Origin: an uncultured bacterium
Lineage (GTDB): Bacteria; Lernaellota; Lernaellaia; Lernaellales; Lernaellaceae
Assembly: GCA_964534375.1 (NCBI GenBank)
Contig: CAZHPN010000151.1
Span: 1-15,291, forward strand
DNA length: 15,291 bases
Reading direction: 5' to 3'
This document shows positions 50 to 13,775 of this stretch, piece after piece. Under the pieces are notes generated by a model that had not been told where the DNA came from, did no database searches, and worked only from the letters and a program-made list of their open reading frames with translations. The position numbers were made by a program, and so were the translations under genes. Numbering within the stretch: position 1 is the stretch's first letter; each line of letters opens with the position of its first letter.

Positions 50-1006
50 CTAAGTGAACTCTGGGCCCTCTGTGGTTAGAATTCCGATTCTACGCAGAAA
101 TTCCGACGGCGGATCGCACGCGATGCGCAGCAGCGCGCGCGTCCGCGGATGCGGCAATTCCAGAACGGCTGCGTGCAGCCAGAAACGCCCTTCCGGCTCG
201 GGCGGGCCGCCATACAGTTCGTCGCCCAGCAGCGGAAAACCCCCGTGTGCCGCGTGCACCCGCACCTGGTGCATCGCGCCCGTCGCGCATTCGGCGCGGA
301 CCAAGGCGAAGCCGGGCAATTGCCGCAGCCGCGTGAATTGCGTCGTGGCCGGGCGCGCGCCGCGGCCGTGCGCCGGACGCGTTTCTACCCGCGGCGAGCG
401 GCGCGCCGGGTGGGCGATCGGCGCGTCGGCCCGCCAGGAATCCGGCGGCGCCCCGGCGCAGAACGCCAGGTATTCCTTGCGAACACGATGCTCGGCAAAG
501 GCCGCGCGAACCGCCGCGAAAACATCCGCGCTCTTGGCGGCGACGAGCACGCCGGACGTCCAGAAATCGAGGCGCTGGCAGAGGCCCGGCTCAAGCGGCG
601 AAAAACCGACGCCGGCCAGTTCCGGCCAGTGCGCGAGCAGCGCTTGCGCGACGGTGGCGCGATCGGCGGCGCGCAGCGGCGCGCTGTGATAGCCAGCCGG
701 CTTGGCGACGGCGAGCAATGCTTCGTCTTCATAAAGAATCGTCAACGGGCAGGCGTCATCCGGCTGCGCCGCTTGCCGCGCGGGCTCGGTCAACAGTTCG
801 ACGACGCGCCCTGGCGCGAGCATCGTGCCTTTGGCGGCTTTCTTGCCGTCGATGCGGACGCCGCCGGCTGCGATCAACGCCGCCGCCTGCCGCCGCGACA
901 AACCGGGGCGGATTTCGGTCAGAAAAGCGTCGAGGCGCACGGCCGCCGGACGGTCGGGAACAACCGCGGCGAAGCGATCGTCGTCAGGATCGTTGGAAGT
1001 CATCAT
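50..1006 (-). CDS. RluA/RluD-family 23S rRNA pseudouridine synthase with N-terminal S4 domain
   Basis: S4-like N-terminus (RLDAFL...SRRQAAALIAAGGVRIDG), motif I (ILYEDEALLAVAKPAG), catalytic motif II (QRLDFWTSG), HQVRVH, GDELYG and LHA. The start overlaps the upstream stop (ATGA). Confidence 0.93.
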   Translation of the reverse strand: MMTSNDPDDDRFAAVVPDRPAAVRLDAFLTEIRPGLSRRQAAALIAAGGVRIDGKKAAKGTMLAPGRVVELLTEPARQAAQPDDACPLTILYEDEALLAVAKPAGYHSAPLRAADRATVAQALLAHWPELAGVGFSPLEPGLCQRLDFWTSGVLVAAKSADVFAAVRAAFAEHRVRKEYLAFCAGAPPDSWRADAPIAHPARRSPRVETRPAHGRGARPATTQFTRLRQLPGFALVRAECATGAMHQVRVHAAHGGFPLLGDELYGGPPEPEGRFWLHAAVLELPHPRTRALLRIACDPPSEFLRRIGILTTEGPEFT

Positions 1007-1497
1007 TTCTTAATAAACAAAAAATACGATGCCGTGCCGACGAGCAGGCCGACCAGCAGCAGAATCCACAAGATCGCCGTAAAGCCAACGCCTTCGGGGT
1101 GGATCGGCTCGGCGCCGATGACGATCGCCGGCGCGGCCGGATCGGGCGCGCCGCGCGCCGGCGTCGGGCTTTCGTCGGCGACGGGCGGCGTGTTGGCGCC
1201 GATGGCGTCGCGCAGCAGCGATTGCCAATGCCAGCCGCCGCCGCAGAAGGCGTCGACAATGCGTTCGATTGTCGGAAAATCGACGCCTTCGGCCAGCGGC
1301 TGGCCCTCGTCGGCGTCGGCGCGGATGTGGCTCAAGGCGAAGGCGCCGTCGAGGTAGAAGATTTCGAGATATTCGACGTTGTCGCGGCCGATCGTGAAGT
1401 AATCGCCCTCGCGAAATTCCTGCTCGCGAAACAGCCGCAGCACCTCGTTGGCTTCCGGAATTTCGAACTCGCCGGCTTGGATGTAAACGGAAAACAT
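1003..1497 (-). CDS. Hypothetical protein (164 aa) with acidic N-terminal domain, Pro/Ala linker and C-terminal transmembrane helix
   Basis: Part of ORF 1003..1779 from the ATG at 1497 (MFSVYIQ...). It ends FTAILWILLLVGLLVGTASYFLFIKK, and its TGA overlaps the RluA ATG. The longer ORF start would overlap the + strand gene at 1559. Confidence 0.75.
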   Translation of the reverse strand: MFSVYIQAGEFEIPEANEVLRLFREQEFREGDYFTIGRDNVEYLEIFYLDGAFALSHIRADADEGQPLAEGVDFPTIERIVDAFCGGGWHWQSLLRDAIGANTPPVADESPTPARGAPDPAAPAIVIGAEPIHPEGVGFTAILWILLLVGLLVGTASYFLFIKK

Positions 1498-1558
1498 GCG
1501 ATTAACATAACCGGTTGCGCCGGATTCAACCAGCCGGCGCGGAACGCGGAGCACGCCC

Positions 1559-1918
1559 TTGCGGAAGATCGCCCTCGCGGCCGTCATCGTCGTCGCGGCC
1601 GTTTGCCTGGCCGCCGGATGCCGGCTGTTCAACCGGGCGGCGCAGTCCGCCGCGACGGACAAACTGCTGGAACTCGGCCAACGCGCCGCGGATGCGGAAG
1701 AGATGCACCTGCACCACGCGCCCGGCGGCGAGCCGCGTTTCGCCGGCCGTTTGGAAGACCTCTTGCCGTTCGACCCCACGTTGGCCGACGACCCGGCAGT
1801 CGTCTTCGACTTCGGCCCGGCCGACGATGCGAACTACAGCATCACGATTACGCGCGCAGGCAGCCCGGGGAAGGCGGTGTGCGATGCGGAAACGGGATGC
1901 AGGGTGGAAATGAAGTAG
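1559..1918 (+). CDS. Small hypothetical lipoprotein (119 aa), possibly with a pilin-like body
   Basis: TTG start, basic N-terminus, hydrophobic stretch and lipobox-like LAAGC. C-terminal YSITIT strand and Cys pair (CDAETGC). Confidence 0.75.
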   Translation: MRKIALAAVIVVAAVCLAAGCRLFNRAAQSAATDKLLELGQRAADAEEMHLHHAPGGEPRFAGRLEDLLPFDPTLADDPAVVFDFGPADDANYSITITRAGSPGKAVCDAETGCRVEMK

Positions 1919-1978: not shown

Positions 1979-3676
1979 CTATTTTTCGTGCGGCAGCAGC
2001 GCGTCAATGTCCTTGGCGCGGGAAATCAGGGCCGGAATCGACAGATCATCGCCGACCAGCAGACGAGTCGCCAGCGCCAGCACCATGTCGTTGTCGGCGG
2101 GATAGTCGGAGTACTCGTCGACCTCTTTCTTGATCCAGCGTTTGGCCATGGCGTAGTCGAACAGCGCCTTGGCGTCGATTTCGAGGTTCGGCGCCGGCGG
2201 CTGCGCGCGCGTTTGGTTTTTGCGGTGGTGTTCCATCCGCGCCTCGGAGTAATACGGATCGACGTCCTCGTGCGGCGGCCGTAACCGGATGTGCGGCGTG
2301 ATGCCGAATTCCTGAATCGAGGCGCCCGACGGCGTGTAATACATCGCCGTGGTCAAGCGCAGGCCGTTTTCGTTGGGCAACTCGAAAATCGATTGCACCG
2401 ATCCTTTGCCGAAGGTCTGATAGCCGAGCACTAGCGCCCGTTCGTGGTCTTTGAGCGCGCCGGCGACGATCTCCGCCGCGCTGGCCGAGCCGCCGTTGAC
2501 CAGCGTCACCATCGGGACTTTCGTCCACGGCCCGTGGCCCGACGCGAAGCGCTCGCGCTCTTGCAGGTAGCCGCGGCCGATCGTGTCGACGATCAGGCCG
2601 GACGACAGGAAACGGTCGGACACGGCCACGGCCTGGTCGAGCAGGCCGCCGGGGTCGTTGCGCAGATCGAGAATCAGCGCGCGCAGGCCGCCGCTCGCGG
2701 TCTCCAACTCCTGGATCGCCTTGTCCATGTCGTCTTCGATGCGGGCGTTGAATTGGATGAGCCGCACCCAGCCGATCCGGCCCGGCAGCAGCTTGCTGCG
2801 CACCGCCACCGCTTCGATTTTGTCGCGGACGAGCGACACCTCGAACGCGTCGGGGCGGCCGGCGCGTTTGACCGTCAGCAGCACCGCGGTGCCGATCTTG
2901 CCGCGGATGCGTCGCACCGCCCATTCCAGCGTCTGCCCCAGCGTGTCCTCGTGTTCGATGGCGACGATGCGGTCCTGGCTTTCCAGGCCGGCCTTCGCGG
3001 CGGGCGAGCCTTCCAGCGGCGCGATCACGACCAGCAGGCCCTTGCGCAGGCCGATCTCGACGCCCACGCCGCCGAAGCTGCCCTGCGTTTCCTGCTGCAA
3101 ATTCTTGTAATCGCCGAGGTCGAGAAACCCCGAATGCGGATCGAGCCGGTACATCATCGCGTCCAGCGCCATGTGCAGAAGATCGTCGCGCGATTGCGTC
3201 AAGCGCAACGCCGTTTTGCAGAAATCGACGCCGTCGAGAATGATCTGCGCCAGCTTGCGTTTGTCCGCCGGCAGATTGCGCGCGAAGGCGTCGCCGCCGG
3301 CCTTGATCGCGACGCGCGTCGGCGAGGCCTGCACCTCGACGTTGTCATAGGGCGTGGGAATCGGCGTCGGCGAGACTTCTTTGTCCTCCTGGAAAAACCC
3401 CGGCGGGGTCGGATCTTCGCCGCGTTCGCGGGCTTGCAGGAATTCCTTGATGAGCGCTTCCTGGGCGCCGTTCTGCACGTCTTTTTTCAAGCAGTCGATC
3501 AAGCCCGCGAAGGCGTCGGCGGTCAGTTCCCGCCGGTCGACCTTCTCGACGTAATAGCGATCGACCAGATCGAAGACGTCGAGGATGATCGTTTGGCGCG
3601 GATCGCGACGGCAGCCCGGCGCGGCGAGCGCCGCGGCCAAGCCGGCGACGAGCAGGCAGGCCCGGCACAGGGCCAC
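1979..3676 (-). CDS. ctpA: S41-family C-terminal processing peptidase (CtpA/Prc-like), predicted lipoprotein
   Basis: LDPHS, PDZ domain (FGGVGVEI...SPAAKAGL), LILDLRNDPGGLL, catalytic Ser (GSASAAEIVAG) and Lys (TFGKGSVQ), YYTPSGASIQ..GITP. GTG start and lipobox-like AAPGC. Confidence 0.93.
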   Translation of the reverse strand: MALCRACLLVAGLAAALAAPGCRRDPRQTIILDVFDLVDRYYVEKVDRRELTADAFAGLIDCLKKDVQNGAQEALIKEFLQARERGEDPTPPGFFQEDKEVSPTPIPTPYDNVEVQASPTRVAIKAGGDAFARNLPADKRKLAQIILDGVDFCKTALRLTQSRDDLLHMALDAMMYRLDPHSGFLDLGDYKNLQQETQGSFGGVGVEIGLRKGLLVVIAPLEGSPAAKAGLESQDRIVAIEHEDTLGQTLEWAVRRIRGKIGTAVLLTVKRAGRPDAFEVSLVRDKIEAVAVRSKLLPGRIGWVRLIQFNARIEDDMDKAIQELETASGGLRALILDLRNDPGGLLDQAVAVSDRFLSSGLIVDTIGRGYLQERERFASGHGPWTKVPMVTLVNGGSASAAEIVAGALKDHERALVLGYQTFGKGSVQSIFELPNENGLRLTTAMYYTPSGASIQEFGITPHIRLRPPHEDVDPYYSEARMEHHRKNQTRAQPPAPNLEIDAKALFDYAMAKRWIKKEVDEYSDYPADNDMVLALATRLLVGDDLSIPALISRAKDIDALLPHEK

Positions 3677-3732
3677 AAGTCTTGGTTTACGGCGAACGAT
3701 GAATTTCCTCCGAGCCGAAGCGAAGTTATCAA

Positions 3733-3806
3733 TTTCTAGGCGCCCCGTGATGTTTTGTCAACCAAGCGGCGCCGCGGTTGACAGCCGGAAACCGTAATTC
3801 TAGGTT
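3733..3806. promoter_or_regulatory. Back-to-back divergent sigma70-like promoters for the S41 gene (-) and the MBL operon (+)
   Basis: Plus strand: TTGACA (3778-3783), 17 nt, TAGGTT (3801-3806), then RBS AAGGAGG at about 3818-3824. Minus strand: TTGACA (3761-3756), 17 nt, TAGAAA (3738-3733). Confidence 0.65.
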
Positions 3807-3829
3807 CACGGAACAATAAGGAGGAGACG

Positions 3830-4564
3830 GTGCGGATCGAGAAAATCGAAAGCGGCTTCTTCGAGACCAACACCTATCTCGCCATCGACGAAGACACGCG
3901 CGAGGCCTTGCTGATCGATCCGGCGGGCAAGTGGCCGCGGATCGCCGCCATGATTCGCGAGACGGGCGCGCGCGTCGTCGCGATCGTCAACACCCACGGG
4001 CACTACGACCACGCCAACCGCAACCACGAGGCGAAGCGATTGACCGGCGCGCCGATTTGCATCCACGGCGCCGACAGCGAGCGCCTGGCCGGCCGTTTTT
4101 CGTGGCCGTCGCTTCTGCTGCGCGGCCGGTCGCGCCTGAGTCCGCCGCCGGACCGCCTGCTGGAAGAAGGCGACGTGATCGAAGCGGGCGCGCTGCAGTT
4201 CGAGGTCATCCACACGCCGGGGCATACGCCGGGCGGCATCTGCCTGCGGTACAAGAAGCACATTTTTTCCGGCGACACGCTGCTGGCCGGCGCGATCGGC
4301 CGGTCGGACATGAAGGGCGGCGATTACGATCAACTCGTCGCCGCCATCCAGGACAAGCTGTTCATTCTTTCGGACGACATATTCGTCTATCCGGGCCACG
4401 GGCCGCGGACGAACATCGAGGCCGAACGCAAGTTCAACATCTTCGTGCGCCTGCGTCCGGAGCAGATCGAAGAGTTGATGTTCGGCCCGCCGCGGCGCAA
4501 GAAACCCCAATCCCCAATCCCCAATCCCCAGTCCCCCGACGGGGCGCAGGGGCGCGAGTCATGA
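3830..4564 (+). CDS. MBL-fold metallo-hydrolase (glyoxalase II / YcbL-GloC-like)
   Basis: TNTYL, IDPAG, THGHYDH metal motif, HTPGHTPG, FSGDTL, GRSD and VYPGHG. GTG start with strong RBS. Confidence 0.93.
   Translation: MRIEKIESGFFETNTYLAIDEDTREALLIDPAGKWPRIAAMIRETGARVVAIVNTHGHYDHANRNHEAKRLTGAPICIHGADSERLAGRFSWPSLLLRGRSRLSPPPDRLLEEGDVIEAGALQFEVIHTPGHTPGGICLRYKKHIFSGDTLLAGAIGRSDMKGGDYDQLVAAIQDKLFILSDDIFVYPGHGPRTNIEAERKFNIFVRLRPEQIEELMFGPPRRKKPQSPIPNPQSPDGAQGRES
4505..4536 (+). repeat. Heptamer tandem array (CCCCAAT)x3 + CCCCAGT inside the MBL gene 3' end
   Basis: Read directly; translated as PQSPIPNPQSP. Confidence 0.85.
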
Positions 4565-5121
4565 ACGCGCCGTTGCTGCTGCCCTTCGCTGGCATCTCGC
4601 CAAAGATCGACCCTTCGGCATTCGTCGCGCCGGGCGTGGTGCTGGTCGGCGACGTTCGTGTTGGCGCGGAATCGAGCTTGTGGTTCGGGACGATCGTGCG
4701 CGGCGACGAGCACAAAGTGATCATCGGCGCGCGGACGAACATCCAGGACCTGTGCGTCTGCCACGAAACGCGCTCGATCGGGCCGCTGATCGTCGGCAGC
4801 GAAGTGACGGTCGGCCACGGCGCGATCCTGCACGGCTGCACGATCGGCGACCGTTGCATGATCGGCATGGGCGCGACCATCCTCGACGGCGCCGTCATCG
4901 GCGAGGATTGCCTCGTCGCGGCCGGCGCGGTGGTGCGTGAGGGCACAAAGGCGCCGCCGCGCAGCTTGGTCGCCGGCAACCCCGCCGCCGTAAAGCGAAC
5001 GCTCCACAGCCACGATCTCGAACGGATCGCCCATGCGGCCGAACATTATGTGAAACGGGCGGCGGAGTATCGCAAGCTGCTGGCCGAAGCCGCGCTGGCG
5101 GCCGAGCCGCCGACCGACTAG
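4561..5121 (+). CDS. Gamma carbonic anhydrase family protein (YrdA/CaiE/PaaY-like hexapeptide-repeat protein)
   Basis: The ATG at 4561 overlaps the MBL TGA. Motifs PKIDPSAFVAP, GDVRVG, RGD, NIQD, and His ligands in VCHE and VGHGAILHGC; IGMGA and GNPA. Confidence 0.93.
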   Translation: MNAPLLLPFAGISPKIDPSAFVAPGVVLVGDVRVGAESSLWFGTIVRGDEHKVIIGARTNIQDLCVCHETRSIGPLIVGSEVTVGHGAILHGCTIGDRCMIGMGATILDGAVIGEDCLVAAGAVVREGTKAPPRSLVAGNPAAVKRTLHSHDLERIAHAAEHYVKRAAEYRKLLAEAALAAEPPTD

Positions 5122-5163
5122 CTCGCCGTTCCGGTTCGGTATTTTCACAGCGCGTTCCCATCC

Positions 5164-5182
5164 GCTCGGCGGGCGGCCGAGC
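5164..5182 (+). terminator. GC-rich hairpin after the gamma-CA gene, possible terminator
   Basis: GCTCGGC-GGGCG-GCCGAGC, a 7-bp stem with no U-tract. Confidence 0.3.
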
Positions 5183-5206
5183 CACCGCGCCATCTCCCCG
5201 CAGACC

Positions 5207-5248
5207 TTGACCTTTATACAGTAGGGGGGTATATTATTCAGCAAGGAG
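5207..5248 (+). promoter_or_regulatory. Sigma70 promoter with overlapping CsoR/RcnR-family operator and RBS
   Basis: -35 TTGACC (5207-5212), 17 nt spacer, -10 TATATT (5230-5235). Inverted repeat TATAC-N9-GTATA (5215-5233) contains a G6 tract (5224-5229), the architecture typical of RcnR/DmeR/FrmR/CsoR operators. RBS AAGGAG at 5243-5248. Confidence 0.85.
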
Positions 5249-5258
5249 AAACAGCGCC

Positions 5259-5537
5259 ATGGCCCACACGATTCGCGAACGTAAAAAATTGCTCAACCGC
5301 ATTCGCCGCATACGCGGCCAGGTCGAGGGCGTCGAGAAGGCGCTGGAGGCAGAGAAAGACCCGTACTTTATCTTGCAGACGGTCGCCGCCTGCCGCGGGG
5401 CGCTGAACTCGCTGATGGCTGAAATCATCGAGGGCCACATCTTGTTTCACGTGCTCGACCCCGAGCGTCCGGCGTCCCCGGAGCAGGCCGAGGCGAGCCA
5501 GGAACTCATCGACATCGTGCGGACCTTCCTGAAATAA
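5259..5537 (+). CDS. rcnR: CsoR/RcnR-family metal-sensing transcriptional repressor (RcnR/DmeR-like)
   Basis: MAHTIRERKKLLNRIRRIRGQV...LQTVAACRGALNSLMAEIIEGHILFHV aligns without gaps to E. coli RcnR (recalled from memory) with His3, His60 and His64. It lies upstream of dmeF and has a cognate-looking operator. Confidence 0.92.
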   Translation: MAHTIRERKKLLNRIRRIRGQVEGVEKALEAEKDPYFILQTVAACRGALNSLMAEIIEGHILFHVLDPERPASPEQAEASQELIDIVRTFLK

Positions 5538-5550
5538 GCGGAGCAAAGCC

Positions 5551-6528
5551 GTGAAAAATCTCAATGCGGTTCACGGTCACGCGTGGCTGGTCGGGATCGT
5601 CGGCTTGGCCGTCGGACTCTTTTTGATGATTTACGTCCCAACGCTGAAGGGCGTGTCGGGCGTCATTTTGCTGATGGCGGTCATGCATTTGGTGGGGGCA
5701 ACAGTGTTTTTCGGGTCGCTGTTCGGGCTGGCACCGAAGCAGTTCGCGCGGGCGTGGTCGCATCTCCGGCCGCGACGGTCGACTTCCGACACGAACGATT
5801 TCGATTTCGGCTGGTCGTGGGGTTGGATGAACGGGCTGTGGCTCGCCGCCCTCGCGCTGGGGGCCGGCGCGGTCGCGGTGCAGGTCGCGGCGCCGGCGTG
5901 GTGGCCGGCGGCGTTTGGCTTGCTGCTGCTGGCCGTCGGTTTTTTCGCCGGCGGTCTGTCGTTGCGCTCGACGCGGCGGCTCGATGAGGCCGTGCTGCCG
6001 CTGGTCCCGCTGTTGTCGGGCGATTGCGATCTGGTTCTCGACGCGGGTTGCGGCGCCGGGCGCACGACGATCGCGCTCGCGAAAGTGGTCAAGCAGGGCC
6101 GCATTGTCGCCGTGGACCGGTTCGACGCCGGGTACATCGAAGACGGCGGCCGCGCTTTGCTGGACCGTAACCTGCGCCTCGCCCGAATCGTCGACCAAGT
6201 GCGGATCGAAGCCGGCGACATCGCGTCGCTGCCGTTCCCCGACGCCACGTTCGACAGCGCCGCCAGCGCCCACGTGATCGACCACCTCGGACCGCACAAA
6301 CAACGCGGGCTCGACGAGATCCGGCGCGTGCTCAAACCCGGCGGCCGTTTCCTGATGGTGATCCGCGTTCCCGGTTGGACGATGTTCGCCATGGCCAACG
6401 TGCTGTCGTTTTTCCTGACCTCGAAGCGGCAATGGCGCGACATGGCCCGCCGCGCCGGGTTCGAGCGCCGCGACGAGGGCGCGCACAACGGCTGCTGGTT
6501 CCTGCTCCTCGAACGGCCGGCGCAGTGA
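5551..6528 (+). CDS. Class I SAM-dependent methyltransferase with about 4 N-terminal transmembrane helices
   Basis: Motif I VLDAGCGAG, IVAVD, GDIASLPFPDATFD and EIRRVLKPGG (Methyltransf_11-like). The first ~140 aa contain four hydrophobic segments. GTG start 13 nt after the repressor stop. Confidence 0.9.
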   Translation: MKNLNAVHGHAWLVGIVGLAVGLFLMIYVPTLKGVSGVILLMAVMHLVGATVFFGSLFGLAPKQFARAWSHLRPRRSTSDTNDFDFGWSWGWMNGLWLAALALGAGAVAVQVAAPAWWPAAFGLLLLAVGFFAGGLSLRSTRRLDEAVLPLVPLLSGDCDLVLDAGCGAGRTTIALAKVVKQGRIVAVDRFDAGYIEDGGRALLDRNLRLARIVDQVRIEAGDIASLPFPDATFDSAASAHVIDHLGPHKQRGLDEIRRVLKPGGRFLMVIRVPGWTMFAMANVLSFFLTSKRQWRDMARRAGFERRDEGAHNGCWFLLLERPAQ

Positions 6529-6542
6529 AGGCGGAGACGGCA

Positions 6543-7460
6543 ATGCAACACGACGAACTGGCGCCCTGGCGGCACGAGCACGGCTTCGGCGCCGACGTGC
6601 ACGGACACGGCGAGCAACGCACCAAGTGGGTCGTGGCGATCACGCTCGCCATGATGGTCGCCGAAATCGCCGGCGGCCTGCTCTTCGGGTCGATGGCCCT
6701 GCTCGCCGAAGGCTGGCACATGGGCACGCACGCGGCGGCGATCGGCATCGCGCTGTTCGCCTACGCGTACGCGCGCAAGCACGCCGGCGATCCGCGCTAC
6801 AGTTTCGGCACGGGCAAAGTGGGGGCGCTGGGAGGTTTCGCGAGCGCGATCGGCCTGCTGGCGGTCGTGCTGTTCGTGCTGTACGAAAGCCTCGTCCGCC
6901 TGGGGTCGCCGGTCCGCATCCGGTTCGATGAGGCCATCGCGGTCGCCGCGGTCGGACTCGCGGTCAACGTGACCTGCGCCCTGCTTCTGCGGGAGCCCGG
7001 GCACGAACACGGCCACGATCACGACGACGGAGCGCACCGCGACCACAATTTGCGCGCCGCCTATCTGCACGTGCTGGCCGACGCGCTGACGGCGGTGTTG
7101 GCGCTCGCGGCGCTTGTCGCCGGCAAGATCCTCGGTTGGGCGTGGATGGACCCGGCGATGGGCGTCGTCGGGTCGCTGGTGATTGCGCGCTGGTCGTACG
7201 GCCTCTTGCGCGACACCGCCGCCGTGCTGCTCGACGCGGAGGTGGACGAAGGCCGGATCGCCGCGATCCGCCAGGCGATCGAGAACGACGGCGAAGGCCG
7301 GGTCGCCGATCTTCACGTTTGGCGGGTCGGGCCGCGCCACCTGGCCGCGATCGTGTCGGTCGTGGCAAGTGAGCCGCGCGAACCGGCGCATTACCGCGGC
7401 CGATTGGCCGAGATGCCCGACCTGGCGCACGTCACCATTGAGGTCAGTCGCCGCGGGTAG
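6543..7460 (+). CDS. dmeF: CDF-family Co(II)/Ni(II) efflux transporter DmeF
   Basis: ATG at 6543 with GGAG RBS. N-terminal WRHEHGF, GSMALLAEGWHMGTH, FGTGK, His-rich loop (GHEHGHDHDDGAHRDHN), LRAAYLHVLADALT, DP, DLHVWRVGP and HVTIEV. Confidence 0.95.
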   Translation: MQHDELAPWRHEHGFGADVHGHGEQRTKWVVAITLAMMVAEIAGGLLFGSMALLAEGWHMGTHAAAIGIALFAYAYARKHAGDPRYSFGTGKVGALGGFASAIGLLAVVLFVLYESLVRLGSPVRIRFDEAIAVAAVGLAVNVTCALLLREPGHEHGHDHDDGAHRDHNLRAAYLHVLADALTAVLALAALVAGKILGWAWMDPAMGVVGSLVIARWSYGLLRDTAAVLLDAEVDEGRIAAIRQAIENDGEGRVADLHVWRVGPRHLAAIVSVVASEPREPAHYRGRLAEMPDLAHVTIEVSRRG

Positions 7461-7547
7461 GTGTGCGTGCGCTTGAGCCTTCGAAATCGTTGACGATTCC
7501 GGCAAAAAGACCCGCATTTTTCGAACAGAGCGAGTTCGATGGCCACC

Positions 7548-7575
7548 GTCGCGAGTCGCGAGTCGCGGGCTTGGA
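7548..7575 (+). repeat. Degenerate heptamer array GTCGCGA-GTCGCGA-GTCGCGG-GCTTGGA
   Basis: Read directly in the intergenic region downstream of dmeF. Confidence 0.65.
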
Positions 7576-7671
7576 ACTCGGCTGTGGTTGGTCTACACTC
7601 CGCCCGCAACAATTCGCTGGCGCCATATCACGTAATGCTTTGATTAAACGTTGCCTTATTCAGGGGATGCG

Positions 7672-8253
7672 GTGGATTTTTTCGGTTGGCTGGCCAAGGA
7701 TCGTCGCCGGGCGTACGCCGCGGTCGCGTGCCTGGCGTTGGTCGGCGTGCCGCTGCACATCATCATTAAAAGTCAGGGCGACCGCGAGCCGCCGGCCGAA
7801 GTCGTGCAGGCGCCAGTGATCCAGGGGCCGACGTTGGCCGGCGGCGAATACGATTCGCTCAACGATCGCGGCCGCCTGGTGGTCGTGGTGTTTCTCGATA
7901 TCGCGTCGCCCGCGAGCGCCGACCAGGCCGATGCGTTCGCCGGCTGGCGCAAGTCGTACGCCGACCGCCGCGCGACCTTCGTCGCGGTCTTGGCGGACGC
8001 GCCGGCCGAGCAGCTCGCCGCCTTCGCCGACGCCCACGGACTGCCGCGCGAGGCGGCCGTCGTCGATCGCGGCGGCACGCGCCACGCGCCGTTCCACGTG
8101 GGCCGCGGGCCGGCCCTCGTCGTGATCGACCCGACGGGCCGCGCGCGCTTCGCCCGCACCGGCTTCGTGAAGCCCGACAACCCGGCGTTTCACACGGTCA
8201 TGAACTACTACCTGAACCAGGCGTTGCGCCTGCCGCTGCCGGGAACGCCATGA
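7672..8253 (+). CDS. Membrane-anchored thioredoxin-fold (TlpA/ResA/redoxin-like) protein lacking CxxC
   Basis: GTG at 7672 after an AGGGG RBS; N-terminal TM helix. The APVIQGPTLAG...RGRLVVVVF..., FVAV, and VGRGPALVVIDPTGR patterns fit a TlpA fold. SPAS stands in the CxxC position. Confidence 0.8.
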   Translation: MDFFGWLAKDRRRAYAAVACLALVGVPLHIIIKSQGDREPPAEVVQAPVIQGPTLAGGEYDSLNDRGRLVVVVFLDIASPASADQADAFAGWRKSYADRRATFVAVLADAPAEQLAAFADAHGLPREAAVVDRGGTRHAPFHVGRGPALVVIDPTGRARFARTGFVKPDNPAFHTVMNYYLNQALRLPLPGTP

Positions 8254-10352: not shown

Positions 10353-11309
10353 ATGACGAGCGAAAAGAAGGACGAAGCGGCATCCGGCGACGTGCGGCAG
10401 GCGAGTCGGCGGGCATTTTTGCACGATGGCGCCGCCGCCCTGGCGGGCGCGTTTTTGTTCGGCGGACGGGCCTGGGCGGCGGTGTTCGAAGTCGGCCATG
10501 CCGCGGCGGCGCCGCCGGCGGCGGGGATCGGCCGTCGCGCCGAGGTTCCGTCGGCGATTGCGCAGCGGTTTCTCAACGAACGGTACGAGTTCGACGTGAC
10601 GTTTTTGGGCGCCAAGACGGCGACGGGCATCATGACCTTCGCCAAAACCGACCGCAACGAGTACACGGCGTCGCTGGAAGCGTCGACGTCGGACCTCGTG
10701 GGCGCCCTCACGTCGCTGCGCAAGGTGGCGATGACGTCGATCATGAACGTGTATAGAAACGGCGAACGCGAGCGGTTCGTTTCACGAATGTTTGTTCGCA
10801 AGACCATCAAGAGCGACAGCGCGCGGGAGACCCGCAACGAATTCGACTACCAACGCCGCCGCTGGTCGTTTTCGTATTATACGAACGGCGTCAAGACCAG
10901 CGGCCCGCGCGTCCGTCGCATTCCGCCCGACGTTTACTACGACGATTTCGTCGCCTTGCTGTATAACTTCCGGGCCCAGGTTTACGCCCCGGTGGCGCAC
11001 GGCCTGCAATTGACGCTGAATACGCTGCCGTGGGACCGGACGGTGAAGATCGACGGCAAGAAGGTCAACAAGAGCGCCTCGACGATCGGCGTCGAAGTGC
11101 CGGGAAATGAACGCCTCGGCGACGACGACCGCAAATGGCTGGCGAAGCTCGGCGCCGAGTACCTGATCGTCGTCAACTTGGACAAAGACGTTTACGGCAT
11201 TCCCAGCGGCCAGGCCAAATTCGCCGGCGACATCGCGCTCGTGCCGGAAGGCGCCTGGGTGGAAAACGCTATGCTGTTCGGAGACGTGCGGGTCTGCCGC
11301 CGCAAGTGA
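10353..11309 (+). CDS. Tat-exported DUF3108-like protein
   Basis: Twin-arginine motif SRRAFL, hydrophobic stretch and AWA cleavage-like site. The beta-rich body (NERYEFDVTFLG..ATG, YDDFVALLYNFR, LFGDVR) resembles DUF3108 by my pattern recognition only. Confidence 0.75.
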   Translation: MTSEKKDEAASGDVRQASRRAFLHDGAAALAGAFLFGGRAWAAVFEVGHAAAAPPAAGIGRRAEVPSAIAQRFLNERYEFDVTFLGAKTATGIMTFAKTDRNEYTASLEASTSDLVGALTSLRKVAMTSIMNVYRNGERERFVSRMFVRKTIKSDSARETRNEFDYQRRRWSFSYYTNGVKTSGPRVRRIPPDVYYDDFVALLYNFRAQVYAPVAHGLQLTLNTLPWDRTVKIDGKKVNKSASTIGVEVPGNERLGDDDRKWLAKLGAEYLIVVNLDKDVYGIPSGQAKFAGDIALVPEGAWVENAMLFGDVRVCRRK

Positions 11310-12993: not shown

Positions 12994-13542
12994 TCAGCGG
13001 TTGGGGTTGCGAGGAGCGGCGGGACCCGAGCGCCGATCGGGGCCGAGCAGCTCAAGCCCCTCGACCGGTGCCGCATGGCCGGCCGCGTCAACGCCGTGCG
13101 TCTCGACGATGCCGACGGCGTTCGGATCGACGGGCTGCTCCGCGTTCACCGGCGAAAAGGTCACTCGGGCAATGCGCCGCAACGTATGGTTTTCCGCCGT
13201 CTGCGGCGGACGGCCGCCGGCGGCGCTCAGCATGACCGACATTTCGCCGTCGCCTGGCTGTAGGAAGGTGCGCCAGCCGCCGGTCGGTTCCGCGGGCGAC
13301 ACGCGCGGGACGGCCAACGAGCGCTTGTCCCAGGCGAGCTTGACCACGATCTGCGTCAGTTCCTGGTCGCGGTCGGTGGCGAGCCAAAAGTCCAGATCGT
13401 TCGAATTCGGCGTGGTTTTCGCCGGCCACGCGGCGTTGCTGGAACGGATCGGCGGTTCGAAATGCCAAATCATCGCCAAGCACGCAACGCCCGCAACGAC
13501 TACAAGCACGTGGGGCAGGAATTTTCTTACTGCCTCATTCAC
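12994..13542 (-). CDS. Hypothetical protein (182 aa) with N-terminal membrane anchor
   Basis: AAGGAG RBS 9 nt before the GTG at 13542 (MNEAVRKF...). TM segment HVLVVVAGVACLAMIW. Its stop is 9 nt before the chain-length determinant start. Confidence 0.65.
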   Translation of the reverse strand: MNEAVRKFLPHVLVVVAGVACLAMIWHFEPPIRSSNAAWPAKTTPNSNDLDFWLATDRDQELTQIVVKLAWDKRSLAVPRVSPAEPTGGWRTFLQPGDGEMSVMLSAAGGRPPQTAENHTLRRIARVTFSPVNAEQPVDPNAVGIVETHGVDAAGHAAPVEGLELLGPDRRSGPAAPRNPNR

Positions 13543-13775
13543 AACTGCTCGCTCCTTAAACAAAGCCCCCGACATTTTTTGAAGGATACTCATTGACGCG
13601 GTGCATCGCAAGAATTAAAGAGTCATCATAGTTGGTTTTTTCGAGCCGGTCCAAGCGGTAGGCGCTTGCGAAATGTCGGGGCGACGCCATCGTCGGCGCT
13701 CGGTGGCGGGCCCAAGCTCGGTTTCGGACAAAGTATTTTCGTGATCGACCGAAAATCGCGGGCGGCAAGATAGGT

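Follow-up and report, generated by a model that had tools for sequence, protein, structure and literature searches.

A predicted membrane methyltransferase recurrently encoded beside Ni/Co efflux genes as a candidate helper of bacterial metal detoxification

In the window (the whole stretch of DNA analysed, 15,291 nt), three genes lie tightly packed on the + strand: a RcnR/DmeR-family repressor gene (5259-5537, 92 aa), a membrane methyltransferase gene (5551-6528, 325 aa, GTG start) and a DmeF gene (6543-7460, 305 aa, ATG at 6543), with intergenic gaps of 13 nt (repressor/methyltransferase) and 14 nt (methyltransferase/DmeF) and a GGAG-type ribosome-binding site 5′ of all three starts. They are preceded by a sigma-70-like promoter, TTGACC-17 nt-TATATT (5207-5235, + strand), which matches 10 of 12 consensus positions and is the only promoter-like site in 4900-7900, compared with 0.3 ± 0.6 in shuffled sequences. 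Overlapping the promoter spacer and −10 box, a candidate RcnR-type operator was found at 5215-5233 (+ strand), an inverted repeat TATAC-N9-GTATA around a G6 tract (5224-5229), and this palindrome occurs a single time in the window, as against 0.01 in shuffles. CsoR/RcnR sites are described in the portion of PMC10318464 available to us as pseudo-palindromes with a run of at least four G or C, and the candidate operator is such a G/C-tract pseudo-palindrome overlapping a promoter, as for RcnR/DmeR. The first-pass annotation had described one promoter with a G-tract operator followed by three packed genes, and both the coordinates and the gaps hold. Judged from the spacing, the repressor, membrane methyltransferase and DmeF genes would be co-transcribed as one operon, and the operator position suggests that this operon may be induced by metal.

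The repressor is a CsoR/RcnR-family member (Pfam scan: PF02583, 75.7 bits versus a cutoff of 22.8, residues 7-88), and it reached the NCBIfam equivalog cutoff of neither RcnR (NF011613, 63.2 bits versus 138) nor FrmR (NF008464, 82.9 versus 133). With the numbering of ligand residues presumed to follow E. coli RcnR, H3, H60 and H64 are retained and a further Cys stands at position 45. In an alignment to the FrmR structures 5lbm and 5lcy, Pro35 falls on their Cys35, and six of seven RcnR-like neighbours likewise have the Cys there, leaving the ligand set of RcnR/DmeR Ni/Co sensors (Cys at the start of helix 2 with His3, His60 and His64) incomplete, with the Cys missing. According to the part of PMC7689651 available to us, this family Cys is invariant and required for Co/Ni sensing. 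Because the residue needed for Co/Ni sensing is replaced, it is not certain that the effector is Ni or Co, and since Pro stands in place of an invariant Cys, the label of a standard RcnR/DmeR overreaches; the earlier rcnR/dmeR assignment is therefore kept as to family, for an atypical member.

The third gene had been called dmeF with its end at 7460, and this was confirmed by NCBIfam NF033827 (416.1 bits versus a cutoff of 250), along with PF01545 Cation_efflux (121.3 versus 26.6). Its product is a CDF-family efflux transporter, with Co(II)/Ni(II) as the predicted specificity; in the available part of PMC7689651, DmeR regulates dmeF, whose product is a CDF-family pump for Ni(II)/Co(II) efflux. 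With the dmeRF operon of rhizobia/Agrobacterium the window shares a repressor of the RcnR family, an operator that is a palindrome with a G tract, and an exporter of DmeF equivalog rank, but it adds a membrane methyltransferase between the two genes, and its repressor has Pro for the invariant Cys.

The C-terminal part of the methyltransferase (aa 146-325; 5986-6528, + strand) forms a class I SAM-dependent catalytic domain, which matched Methyltransf_11 (PF08241, 64.9 bits, 1.1e-17) and Methyltransf_25 (PF13649, 62.5 bits, 6.1e-17) in Pfam and solved methyltransferases in fold (Foldseek). The class I (seven-beta-strand) features, motif I of GxGxG type (D164-x-G166-C-G168) and the acidic residue following strand 2 (D189), were found in 98-99% of 156 aligned family sequences, and the domain carries the family motif DRFDxxYIxxGGR, the pair D244-H245 (D244 in 154/156 and H245 in 153/156) and aromatic residues invariant across the family (F191, Y195, W276, F279, W295 and W316). 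As all SAM-binding motifs are intact, an active enzyme is predicted. The class I fold and the AHVIDH segment (residues 240-245) had both been pointed out in the first-pass annotation and are indeed present; as a metal site, however, the segment was rejected, being a generic post-beta4 Methyltransf_11 motif in which H241 is variable (H in 109 and N in 38 of the 156 sequences).

No NCBIfam model reached its cutoff for the 325-aa protein. UbiE/MenG membership fell short (TIGR01934, 38.8 bits versus 158; other UbiE/MenG models, 33-39 versus 216-420), and the best NCBIfam rows over the catalytic core were ArsM-like models. An arsenic resistance unit consists of an ArsR sensor, an ArsM SAM methyltransferase and an exporter, and the window likewise holds a sensor, a SAM methyltransferase and an exporter in a single unit. 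Both this ars-like layout and the ArsM-like rows would suit an enzyme that, like ArsM or TehB, methylates a metal(loid) directly, the product then being exported. We nevertheless regard this as extremely improbable: the ArsM-like scores are far below the cutoffs (43-62 bits versus 263-575; NF008823, 43.4 versus 263), and while ArsM arsenite methyltransferases have conserved As-binding cysteines, there is no Cys set for As(III) in this family, because its only invariant Cys, C167, sits in the GCG of SAM motif I. Moreover, RcnA and CDF proteins are cation exporters, and by established chemistry neither free Ni(II) nor free Co(II) is a methyl acceptor for SAM, the metals here being cations without a known methylation chemistry.

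The N-terminal membrane domain (aa 1-145; 5551-5985, + strand) contains four TM helices, HxH, H46, FGW86-88 and P115xxW118P119. AlphaFold2 placed the helices at residues 6-31, 36-60, 90-113 and 115-140, in agreement with hydropathy, and H8 and H10 (HGH) and H46 (in TM2) were conserved in 139, 141 and 149 of the 156 aligned family members, respectively, which bears out the earlier description of about four TM helices with an N-terminal HGH and a His in TM2. The domain has no Pfam match, and when folded alone (pLDDT 76.7) it gave no solved-fold matches at E≤0.001 and 55 matches, all weak, at E≤10. Among 1.84 billion cluster representatives, 76 relatives of the domain were found at E≤0.001; Pfam scans of nine of these 76 revealed no other architectures, and a search for the domain as a separate short protein returned one 130-aa fragment. 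The invariant HxH and FGW motifs are expected at the cytoplasmic side of the membrane.

Such conserved histidines could belong to a metal-binding accessory, in which HxH, H46 and the membrane domain capture cytoplasmic Ni/Co for the pump, or sense it, while methyl transfer is secondary or regulatory. Consistent with this, H8, H10, F86-G87-W88 and A107 are invariant and H46 is present in 16/17 in a 17-row alignment of the membrane domain, and DmeF likewise has an N-terminal HxH (H11 and H13) that is invariant in all 30 aligned homologues. This reading is still very unlikely, as the intramembrane ligands are too few for a transport site, and as conservation of the SAM-binding motifs and of D244-H245, the putative catalytic pair, equals that of the His motifs, which argues for selection on catalysis.

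A search found 997 family proteins at E≤0.001 among 8000 candidates scored. Of the 120 listed, 119 align over 96-100% of the query with identities of 55-99% (at most 73% except for the near-identical P0004), and the remaining one covers 78%. The family is large and conserved, and neither Pfam, NCBIfam nor the source annotations give it a specific name. In a plasmid collection, tblastn at E≤1e-20 found no match. Three proteins from other sources join neighbouring products, RcnR to methyltransferase (P0146 and P0190) and methyltransferase to RcnA (P0136); they were rejected as true fusions and judged to be predicted frameshift or read-through products because their linkers are Arg/Pro-rich and out-of-frame-like, and as such they reflect gene adjacency.

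To our first-pass annotation's proposed check, how often homologues neighbour metal genes, a genome scan was applied. It yielded at least 599 stretches, and from 436 confirmed relatives the best 80 went into the comparison. The sample of family loci is small and uneven (20 loci, of which 6 are from Caulobacterales), with 16 being full-length, or 17 when the window is included; gene calls were the union of two heuristics (197 ORFs scanned), and tblastn added genes absent from both sets, RcnR in L008 and TetR in L001 and L002. A Ni/Co-type exporter was found directly 3′ of the methyltransferase in 8/16 full-length loci. This exporter is of RcnA type in L003, L007, L008, L010 and L014 (NF007454, 380-455 bits versus a cutoff of 195) and of CDF type in L004, L005 and L012, while in L015 RcnA and RcnR genes lie about 0.8 kb from the methyltransferase. 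In L011 and L013, the gene directly downstream encodes a polytopic membrane protein that lacks annotation and has a His-rich loop; its match to the RcnA profile reached 72% probability, and as this similarity is confined to the last helix, neither protein was counted as an exporter. Leads for these two proteins came from a protein atlas, in which the neighbouring clusters contained DsbD_2 or NicO in 10-11% of members. With the window included, the adjacency amounted to 9/17 loci, compared with 0/60 generic-methyltransferase control loci (L021-L080), in which tblastn and HMMs found no CDF, RcnA or RcnR genes within at most 5 kb on each side. Recurrent adjacency, the mark of a Ni/Co efflux accessory family and the linkage to metal genes that had been set as a test beforehand, was thus observed. 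The methyltransferase of the window is no random insertion, since linkage to Ni/Co efflux genes recurs among its homologues.

Several gene orders were found (with R for regulator, M for methyltransferase and T for transporter, R-M-T, M-R-T, M-T-R and TetR<>M-T), and exporter adjacency changed state at least four times on the methyltransferase tree. The adjacent exporters are of at least three kinds (RcnA-type, DmeF-type CDF and other CDF) and come from several lineages. AT-rich palindromes around G tracts, similar to the candidate operator, were found 5′ of the RcnR-linked operons L007, L008, L010, L012, L014 and L015, where they precede the first gene, including in L012, whose first gene is the methyltransferase. 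A regulator of RcnR, TetR or AraC type stands beside the enzyme in every locus but one. Regulators of the TetR, AraC-GyrI and PadR types, which usually bind small ligands, were found in 12/19 loci (L001-L019), an observation that was counted toward a small-molecule leaning.

These neighbourhoods also bear on a hitch-hiker reading, in which the enzyme would methylate a membrane lipid or a quinone, have no metal role and owe its place by metal genes to the way resistance genes gather on mobile or variable DNA. In favour of this reading, 5/17 loci (L001, L002, L006, L009 and L018) have no transporter-like neighbour and no metal gene, TetR-type rather than metal-sensing regulators occur in nine loci, integrase and transposase genes lie nearby in L011, and psd and pssA are directly upstream in L012. 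Yet within operons the gene is flanked by the repressor and the pump, at spacings from a small overlap to about 30 nt, and it recurs with three exporter kinds and in several gene orders, with none of the 60 controls sharing the linkage. We therefore consider such hitch-hiking distinctly unlikely, and the methyltransferase is probably a true functional partner of Ni/Co efflux.

In existing descriptions, the Ni/Co efflux systems rcnRA and dmeRF consist of a sensor and a pump. The operons rcnR - methyltransferase - rcnA of L007, L008, L010 and L014, with repressors of the H-C-H-H type, resemble the rcnR-rcnA(B) system of E. coli/Salmonella, for which we know of no reported methyltransferase; none turned up in the literature searched. 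The same search found no description of an association between a methyltransferase and Ni/Co efflux, and the word "methyltransferase" has 0 occurrences in the main text of a serpentine Mesorhizobium paper (PMC5315480). The suggestion that this is a possibly undescribed arm of Co/Ni homeostasis agrees with that outcome.

As candidate acceptors, the first-pass annotation had offered His residues of the transporter, a lipid or a chelator, and the first of these concerns the exporters themselves. The window DmeF has five HxH motifs (at residues 11, 20, 154, 156 and 158), and HxH-rich segments are present in all linked exporters, whatever their family (8-19 HxH in RcnA-type and 2-7 in CDF proteins). 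In the portions of PMC12269839, PMC13125359 and PMC7873184 available to us, human METTL9, a eukaryotic HxH histidine N1-methyltransferase, methylates HxH with a small middle residue, including in zinc transporters, and alters metal binding. Being likewise a seven-beta-strand SAM enzyme, the window protein could be a functional analogue, a membrane-tethered protein-His methyltransferase that acts on HxH-rich cytoplasmic segments of the exporter and tunes metal binding or gating, with its own HxH as a pseudo-substrate or docking motif. The middle residue of this HxH is small (S in 101/156 and G in 26/156 sequences), as in the motifs that METTL9 methylates, and the membrane anchor would position the catalytic domain beside transporter loops. 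The idea stays alive because all linked exporters carry HxH-rich segments, but these do not discriminate, since they are common to Ni/Co/Zn exporters generally. A protein substrate is a feature of METTL9, to which the window enzyme has no detectable homology and from which it differs in domain architecture: DREV, which we take to be the Pfam name of the METTL9 family, was absent among the 10 Pfam families matched at E≤0.01, and METTL9 was absent among the Foldseek rows listed and among 14 PDB HMM hits. With the nearest structures listed being small-molecule enzymes and with 5/17 loci lacking a transporter-like neighbour, this reading is unlikely. Prediction of a complex between DmeF and the methyltransferase scored 0.00 in both runs, which, made without controls, speaks neither for nor against binding. 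If true, the METTL9-like reading would mean that post-translational His methylation regulates bacterial metal efflux by RcnA, DmeF and other CDF pumps; to our knowledge there is no bacterial case of His methylation tuning a metal transporter, and an exporter histidine would be the first such acceptor.

Among the rows listed, the best-matching structures by Foldseek and HMM searches were natural-product methyltransferases: AtmM, RebM, MitM, TleD and Rv2258c. The first four align over residues ~140-320 (Foldseek E 6e-11 to 1e-9; HMM E 6e-13 to 5e-11), and a His-His segment of RebM, presumably catalytic, aligns with D244-H245. They differ in being soluble and not linked to metal genes, in lacking the four-TM domain and the DRFDxxYIxxGGR insert, and in sharing 17-24% identity. 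These structural neighbours, together with the aromatic-rich pocket, favour a lipophilic small-molecule acceptor, although fold neighbours say little about the acceptor, since protein methyltransferases have the same fold as small-molecule methyltransferases. A small molecule or lipid as acceptor is thus put forward tentatively.

We propose that Ni or Co would release the repressor, so that enzyme and pump are produced jointly. The positive-inside rule would put the catalytic domain at the inner membrane's cytoplasmic face, adjoining the invariant HxH and FGW, with HxH as a possible docking site for a metal or metal-chelate. At the membrane-cytosol interface it would act on a small molecule or lipid head group that is lipophilic and probably coordinates metal, and methylation would cap a donor atom of this acceptor while the pump removes the metal. 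In a bolder and less likely reading, the enzyme would inactivate a membrane-permeant metal chelator or ionophore by donor-atom methylation, with the pump clearing the metal so delivered. For the proposal as a whole (operon partner, membrane-face enzyme, lipophilic acceptor and HxH docking), we estimate a probability of roughly 0.45. No Ni/Co-related small molecule is known to us as a target of SAM-dependent chemistry.

Because the family adjoins metal pumps in many unrelated bacteria, the enzyme probably assists metal detoxification in a way so far unrecognised. A conserved enzyme within such operons, in several phyla and with three pump kinds, suggests that cation detoxification includes a chemical step not yet recognised, in which a ligand, a lipid or the pump could be modified. 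Cultured carriers include a Phenylobacterium and Caulobacter ginsengisoli DSM 18695 (L008); the latter, with its genes ordered rcnR - methyltransferase - rcnA, makes the question directly testable.

The three-gene unit lies on the forward strand of the window and starts with a promoter-like site (TTGACC-17-TATATT, 5207–5235, +), the sole one found between 4900 and 7900 against 0.3 ± 0.6 in shuffled sequences. Its spacer and −10 box are overlapped by an inverted repeat, TATAC-N9-GTATA around a G6 tract (5215–5233, +), which matched once in the 15.3-kb window versus 0.01 expected. Then follow the genes for a 92-aa CsoR/RcnR-family protein (5259–5537, +; PF02583, 75.7 bits), a 325-aa membrane methyltransferase with a GTG start (5551–6528, +), whose N-terminus agrees with those of its homologues, and a DmeF equivalog (6543–7460, +; NF033827, 416 bits versus a cutoff of 250). 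The intergenic gaps are 13 and 14 nt, a GGAG-type ribosome-binding site precedes every start, and terminator-like matches within the unit are about as frequent as by chance (3 versus 2.9 expected). The first-pass annotation of a compact promoter with a G-tract operator and three packed genes was right in every checkable detail, coordinates and gaps included. In the Pfam scan, no evident metal link was found for the flanking genes, a gamma-carbonic-anhydrase-like gene and an MBL-fold hydrolase upstream, and an AhpC/TSA-like protein and an ABC transporter downstream. Three long ORFs of the window (1003–1779, −; 10353–11309, +; 12994–13611, −) matched no Pfam family at E ≤ 0.01.

The window repressor retains H3, H60 and H64, and scored under the cutoffs of both the RcnR and FrmR equivalogs of NCBIfam. 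Its Pro35 aligns with the Cys of the FrmR structures 5lbm and 5lcy and of 6/7 RcnR-like neighbours, and its sole Cys is placed ten residues further on. This differs from the CsoR/RcnR family as portrayed in a review (PMC7689651), where the Cys at this position is invariant and needed for Co/Ni binding. Its place in a DmeF operon, behind a candidate operator of typical form, makes Ni/Co sensing our best guess for this protein. The “invariant” Cys is likewise missing, with H3, H60 and H64 kept, from the repressor of locus L003 (7286–7552, Gly) and from the N-terminal part of P0146, a predicted protein whose RcnR part is of the window's Cys-less type and also has a Cys in helix 2, ten residues after that position. 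Such repressors may form a Cys-independent Ni/Co sensor subtype or sense something else.

No NCBIfam model reached its cutoff for the enzyme; the best rows, ArsM-like and UbiE-like, covered the catalytic core only, with 39–62 bits versus cutoffs of 155–575. Direct methylation of a metal(loid) is one of the weaker readings of its function, against which the failed ArsM tests speak. The closest solved structures among the matches listed are the natural-product methyltransferases AtmM, RebM, MitM, TleD and Rv2258c (Foldseek E 6e-11 to 1e-9; profile search E 6e-13 to 5e-11), which are soluble, whereas the window enzyme is membrane-anchored. Its membrane domain matched no Pfam model and returned 0 structural matches at E ≤ 0.001 in the fold search; used by itself as query against 1.84 billion cluster representatives, it retrieved only 76 proteins at E ≤ 0.001, which are full-length family members or fragments. 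Roughly one thousand proteins of the family are known from sequence only. In two Myxococcota loci, a second class I methyltransferase with a two-TM anchor (L001:3639–4424, L002:3488–4381), 29–38% identical to the catalytic core of the window enzyme and having an N-terminal RYGYHVPH motif, lies upstream of the TetR gene and the family member, forming a two-enzyme module.

The AlphaFold2 model of the enzyme (28-row alignment, mean pLDDT 72.5) predicted four helices (6–31, 36–60, 90–113 and 115–140), with which hydropathy concurs and which bears out the initial estimate of about four TM helices; a Rossmann-type domain follows (pLDDT mostly 80–93). Because most Arg and Lys residues are found in loop 59–91 and the stretch past TM4, the well-established positive-inside rule predicts a cytoplasmic location for the N-terminus, this loop and the catalytic domain. 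Among 156 aligned family members, H8, H10 and H46 are kept in 139, 141 and 149, F86, G87 and W88 in 149, 151 and 148, P115, W118 and P119 in 151, 149 and 145, and D244 and H245 in 154 and 153, respectively; the SAM motif D164-x-G-C-G, D189 and a family-specific insert, DRFDxxYIxxGGR, are also conserved. H8, H10, F86, G87, W88 and A107 are invariant in a 17-row alignment of the membrane domain alone, two Bacteroidales members included. The prediction places H8, H10 and the FGW motif where the membrane meets the cytoplasm, adjoining the catalytic domain; that the HxH and the membrane domain serve metal delivery or sensing is another of the weaker readings. The histidines of HGH and TM2 highlighted in the first-pass annotation are therefore conserved, but its AHVIDH segment is the motif usually found after strand 4 in methyltransferases of this class, with H241 being N in 38/156.

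Scanning a single genome for each species gave at least 436 confirmed relatives, the best 80 of which define loci L001–L080. L001–L020 are genuine family members; L021–L080 match the generic catalytic core only and therefore constitute a built-in control. A Pfam scan covered 197 candidate ORFs lying up to 3 kb from the family genes of L001–L020, and transporters and regulators were cross-checked by NCBIfam, tblastn and our own HMMs. Among these best 80 of 436 relatives, 16 loci (L001–L014, L016 and L018) hold a full-length member. Directly downstream lies an RcnA-type Ni/Co exporter in L003, L007, L008, L010 and L014 (NF007454, 380–455 bits, cutoff 195), and a CDF exporter in L004, L005 (DmeF-type, 254 bits) and L012. 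Linkage of homologues to metal genes had been set beforehand as the refutation test; with the window included, a recognised exporter immediately follows in 9/17 loci from the best 80 of 436 relatives, while CDF, RcnA and RcnR genes were detected in 0/60 control loci by tblastn and our own HMMs. A transporter-like neighbour is missing in 5/17 (L001, L002, L006, L009 and L018), and in the diverged member L015, RcnA and RcnR lie at a distance of about 0.8 kb. The adjoining regulator is of the RcnR family in L003, L007, L008, L010, L012 and L014 and of the TetR family in L001–L006, L011 and L013, and none was recognised in L009.

Gene order varies among repressor–enzyme–pump, enzyme–repressor–pump (L012), enzyme–pump–repressor (L003) and a divergent TetR gene followed by enzyme–pump. 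When mapped onto a maximum-likelihood tree of the 20 family proteins, exporter adjacency is present in three major clades and requires at least four changes of state; it occurs in Caulobacterales, Hyphomicrobiales, Betaproteobacteria, Acidobacteriota and the window's organism. RcnR-linked operons have one style of G-tract palindrome (ATATCCTAT...G-run...ATAGGATAT) ahead of the first gene, including that of L012, where the first gene is the methyltransferase. Predicted proteins from other sources repeat the adjacency, as RcnR to enzyme (P0146, P0190) and enzyme to RcnA (P0136). The linkers of these apparent fusions of RcnR with the enzyme N-terminus, or of the enzyme with NicO, are Arg/Pro-rich and seem to be translated out of frame; frameshifts or read-through in gene calling probably account for them. 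Altogether, we consider the coupling of the enzyme to Ni/Co-type efflux real with a probability of about 0.7, in a small sample, rich in Caulobacterales, of the best 80 of 436 relatives. Operons of the dmeRF/rcnRA type are a known kind, to which the window operon adds an embedded enzyme family with a membrane domain, both new; in keeping with the suggestion of a possibly undescribed arm of Co/Ni homeostasis, full-text searches of the openly accessible literature turned up no paper placing a methyltransferase in such operons.

The operon anatomy, intact SAM motifs and recurrent context are established here. In the proposed mechanism, metal would release the repressor and enzyme and pump would be made together, with the enzyme working on the membrane's inner face. 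Its acceptor is tentatively taken to be lipophilic and probably metal-coordinating, either a small molecule or a lipid head group, since the closest folds among the matches listed are small-molecule enzymes, many aromatic residues are conserved around the catalytic core in the family, regulators in 12/19 loci (L001–L019) are of ligand-binding types (TetR, AraC-GyrI or PadR), and a membrane anchor suits a membrane-partitioned substrate. The main rival, methylation of His-rich HxH segments of the exporters, appears unlikely: such segments are present in every linked exporter, and human METTL9 is reported to act likewise on zinc transporters (PMC12269839, PMC13125359, PMC7873184), but the window enzyme has no homology to METTL9 among the matches listed, and His-rich loops are general in pumps of this sort. 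A hitch-hiking lipid or quinone enzyme is a weaker alternative still.

Besides recognised exporters, the gene immediately after the methyltransferase encodes an unannotated polytopic membrane protein in L011 (5940–6635) and L013 (6058–6726), and possibly in L016 (6009–6470). The L011 and L013 proteins gave no Pfam match; they are 52% identical and have an LHTMVPDHW motif in common as well as a His-rich loop. In neighbouring clusters of the protein atlas, about 10% of members carry DsbD_2 or NicO; this relation is only a lead, and the two loci were therefore not counted as exporter-linked, although these proteins may represent a further metal-transporter family. In the Bacteroidales loci (L016:1377–4950, L018:1478–4938), an AraC-GyrI-type regulator and a TonB-dependent receptor precede the family member, and L018 has MgtE-like and Nramp genes 1.4–2.7 kb downstream. 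The TetR proteins of family loci split into two subgroups, and GTCCGGAAAC-like words, a candidate TetR operator, are repeated in TetR–methyltransferase intergenic regions (L003:4780–5010, L006:4830–5010, also L004, L005 and L011). In two operons of Caulobacterales (L008:6833–7240, L014:6869–7276), the gene after rcnA belongs to the GFA family (PF04828, glutathione-dependent formaldehyde-activating enzymes). In L012, the only locus with a lipid-synthesis neighbour, phosphatidylserine decarboxylase and CDP-alcohol phosphatidyltransferase genes (3287–4803) immediately precede the methyltransferase–rcnR–CDF operon, and just before them lies a YbjQ-type heavy-metal-binding protein.
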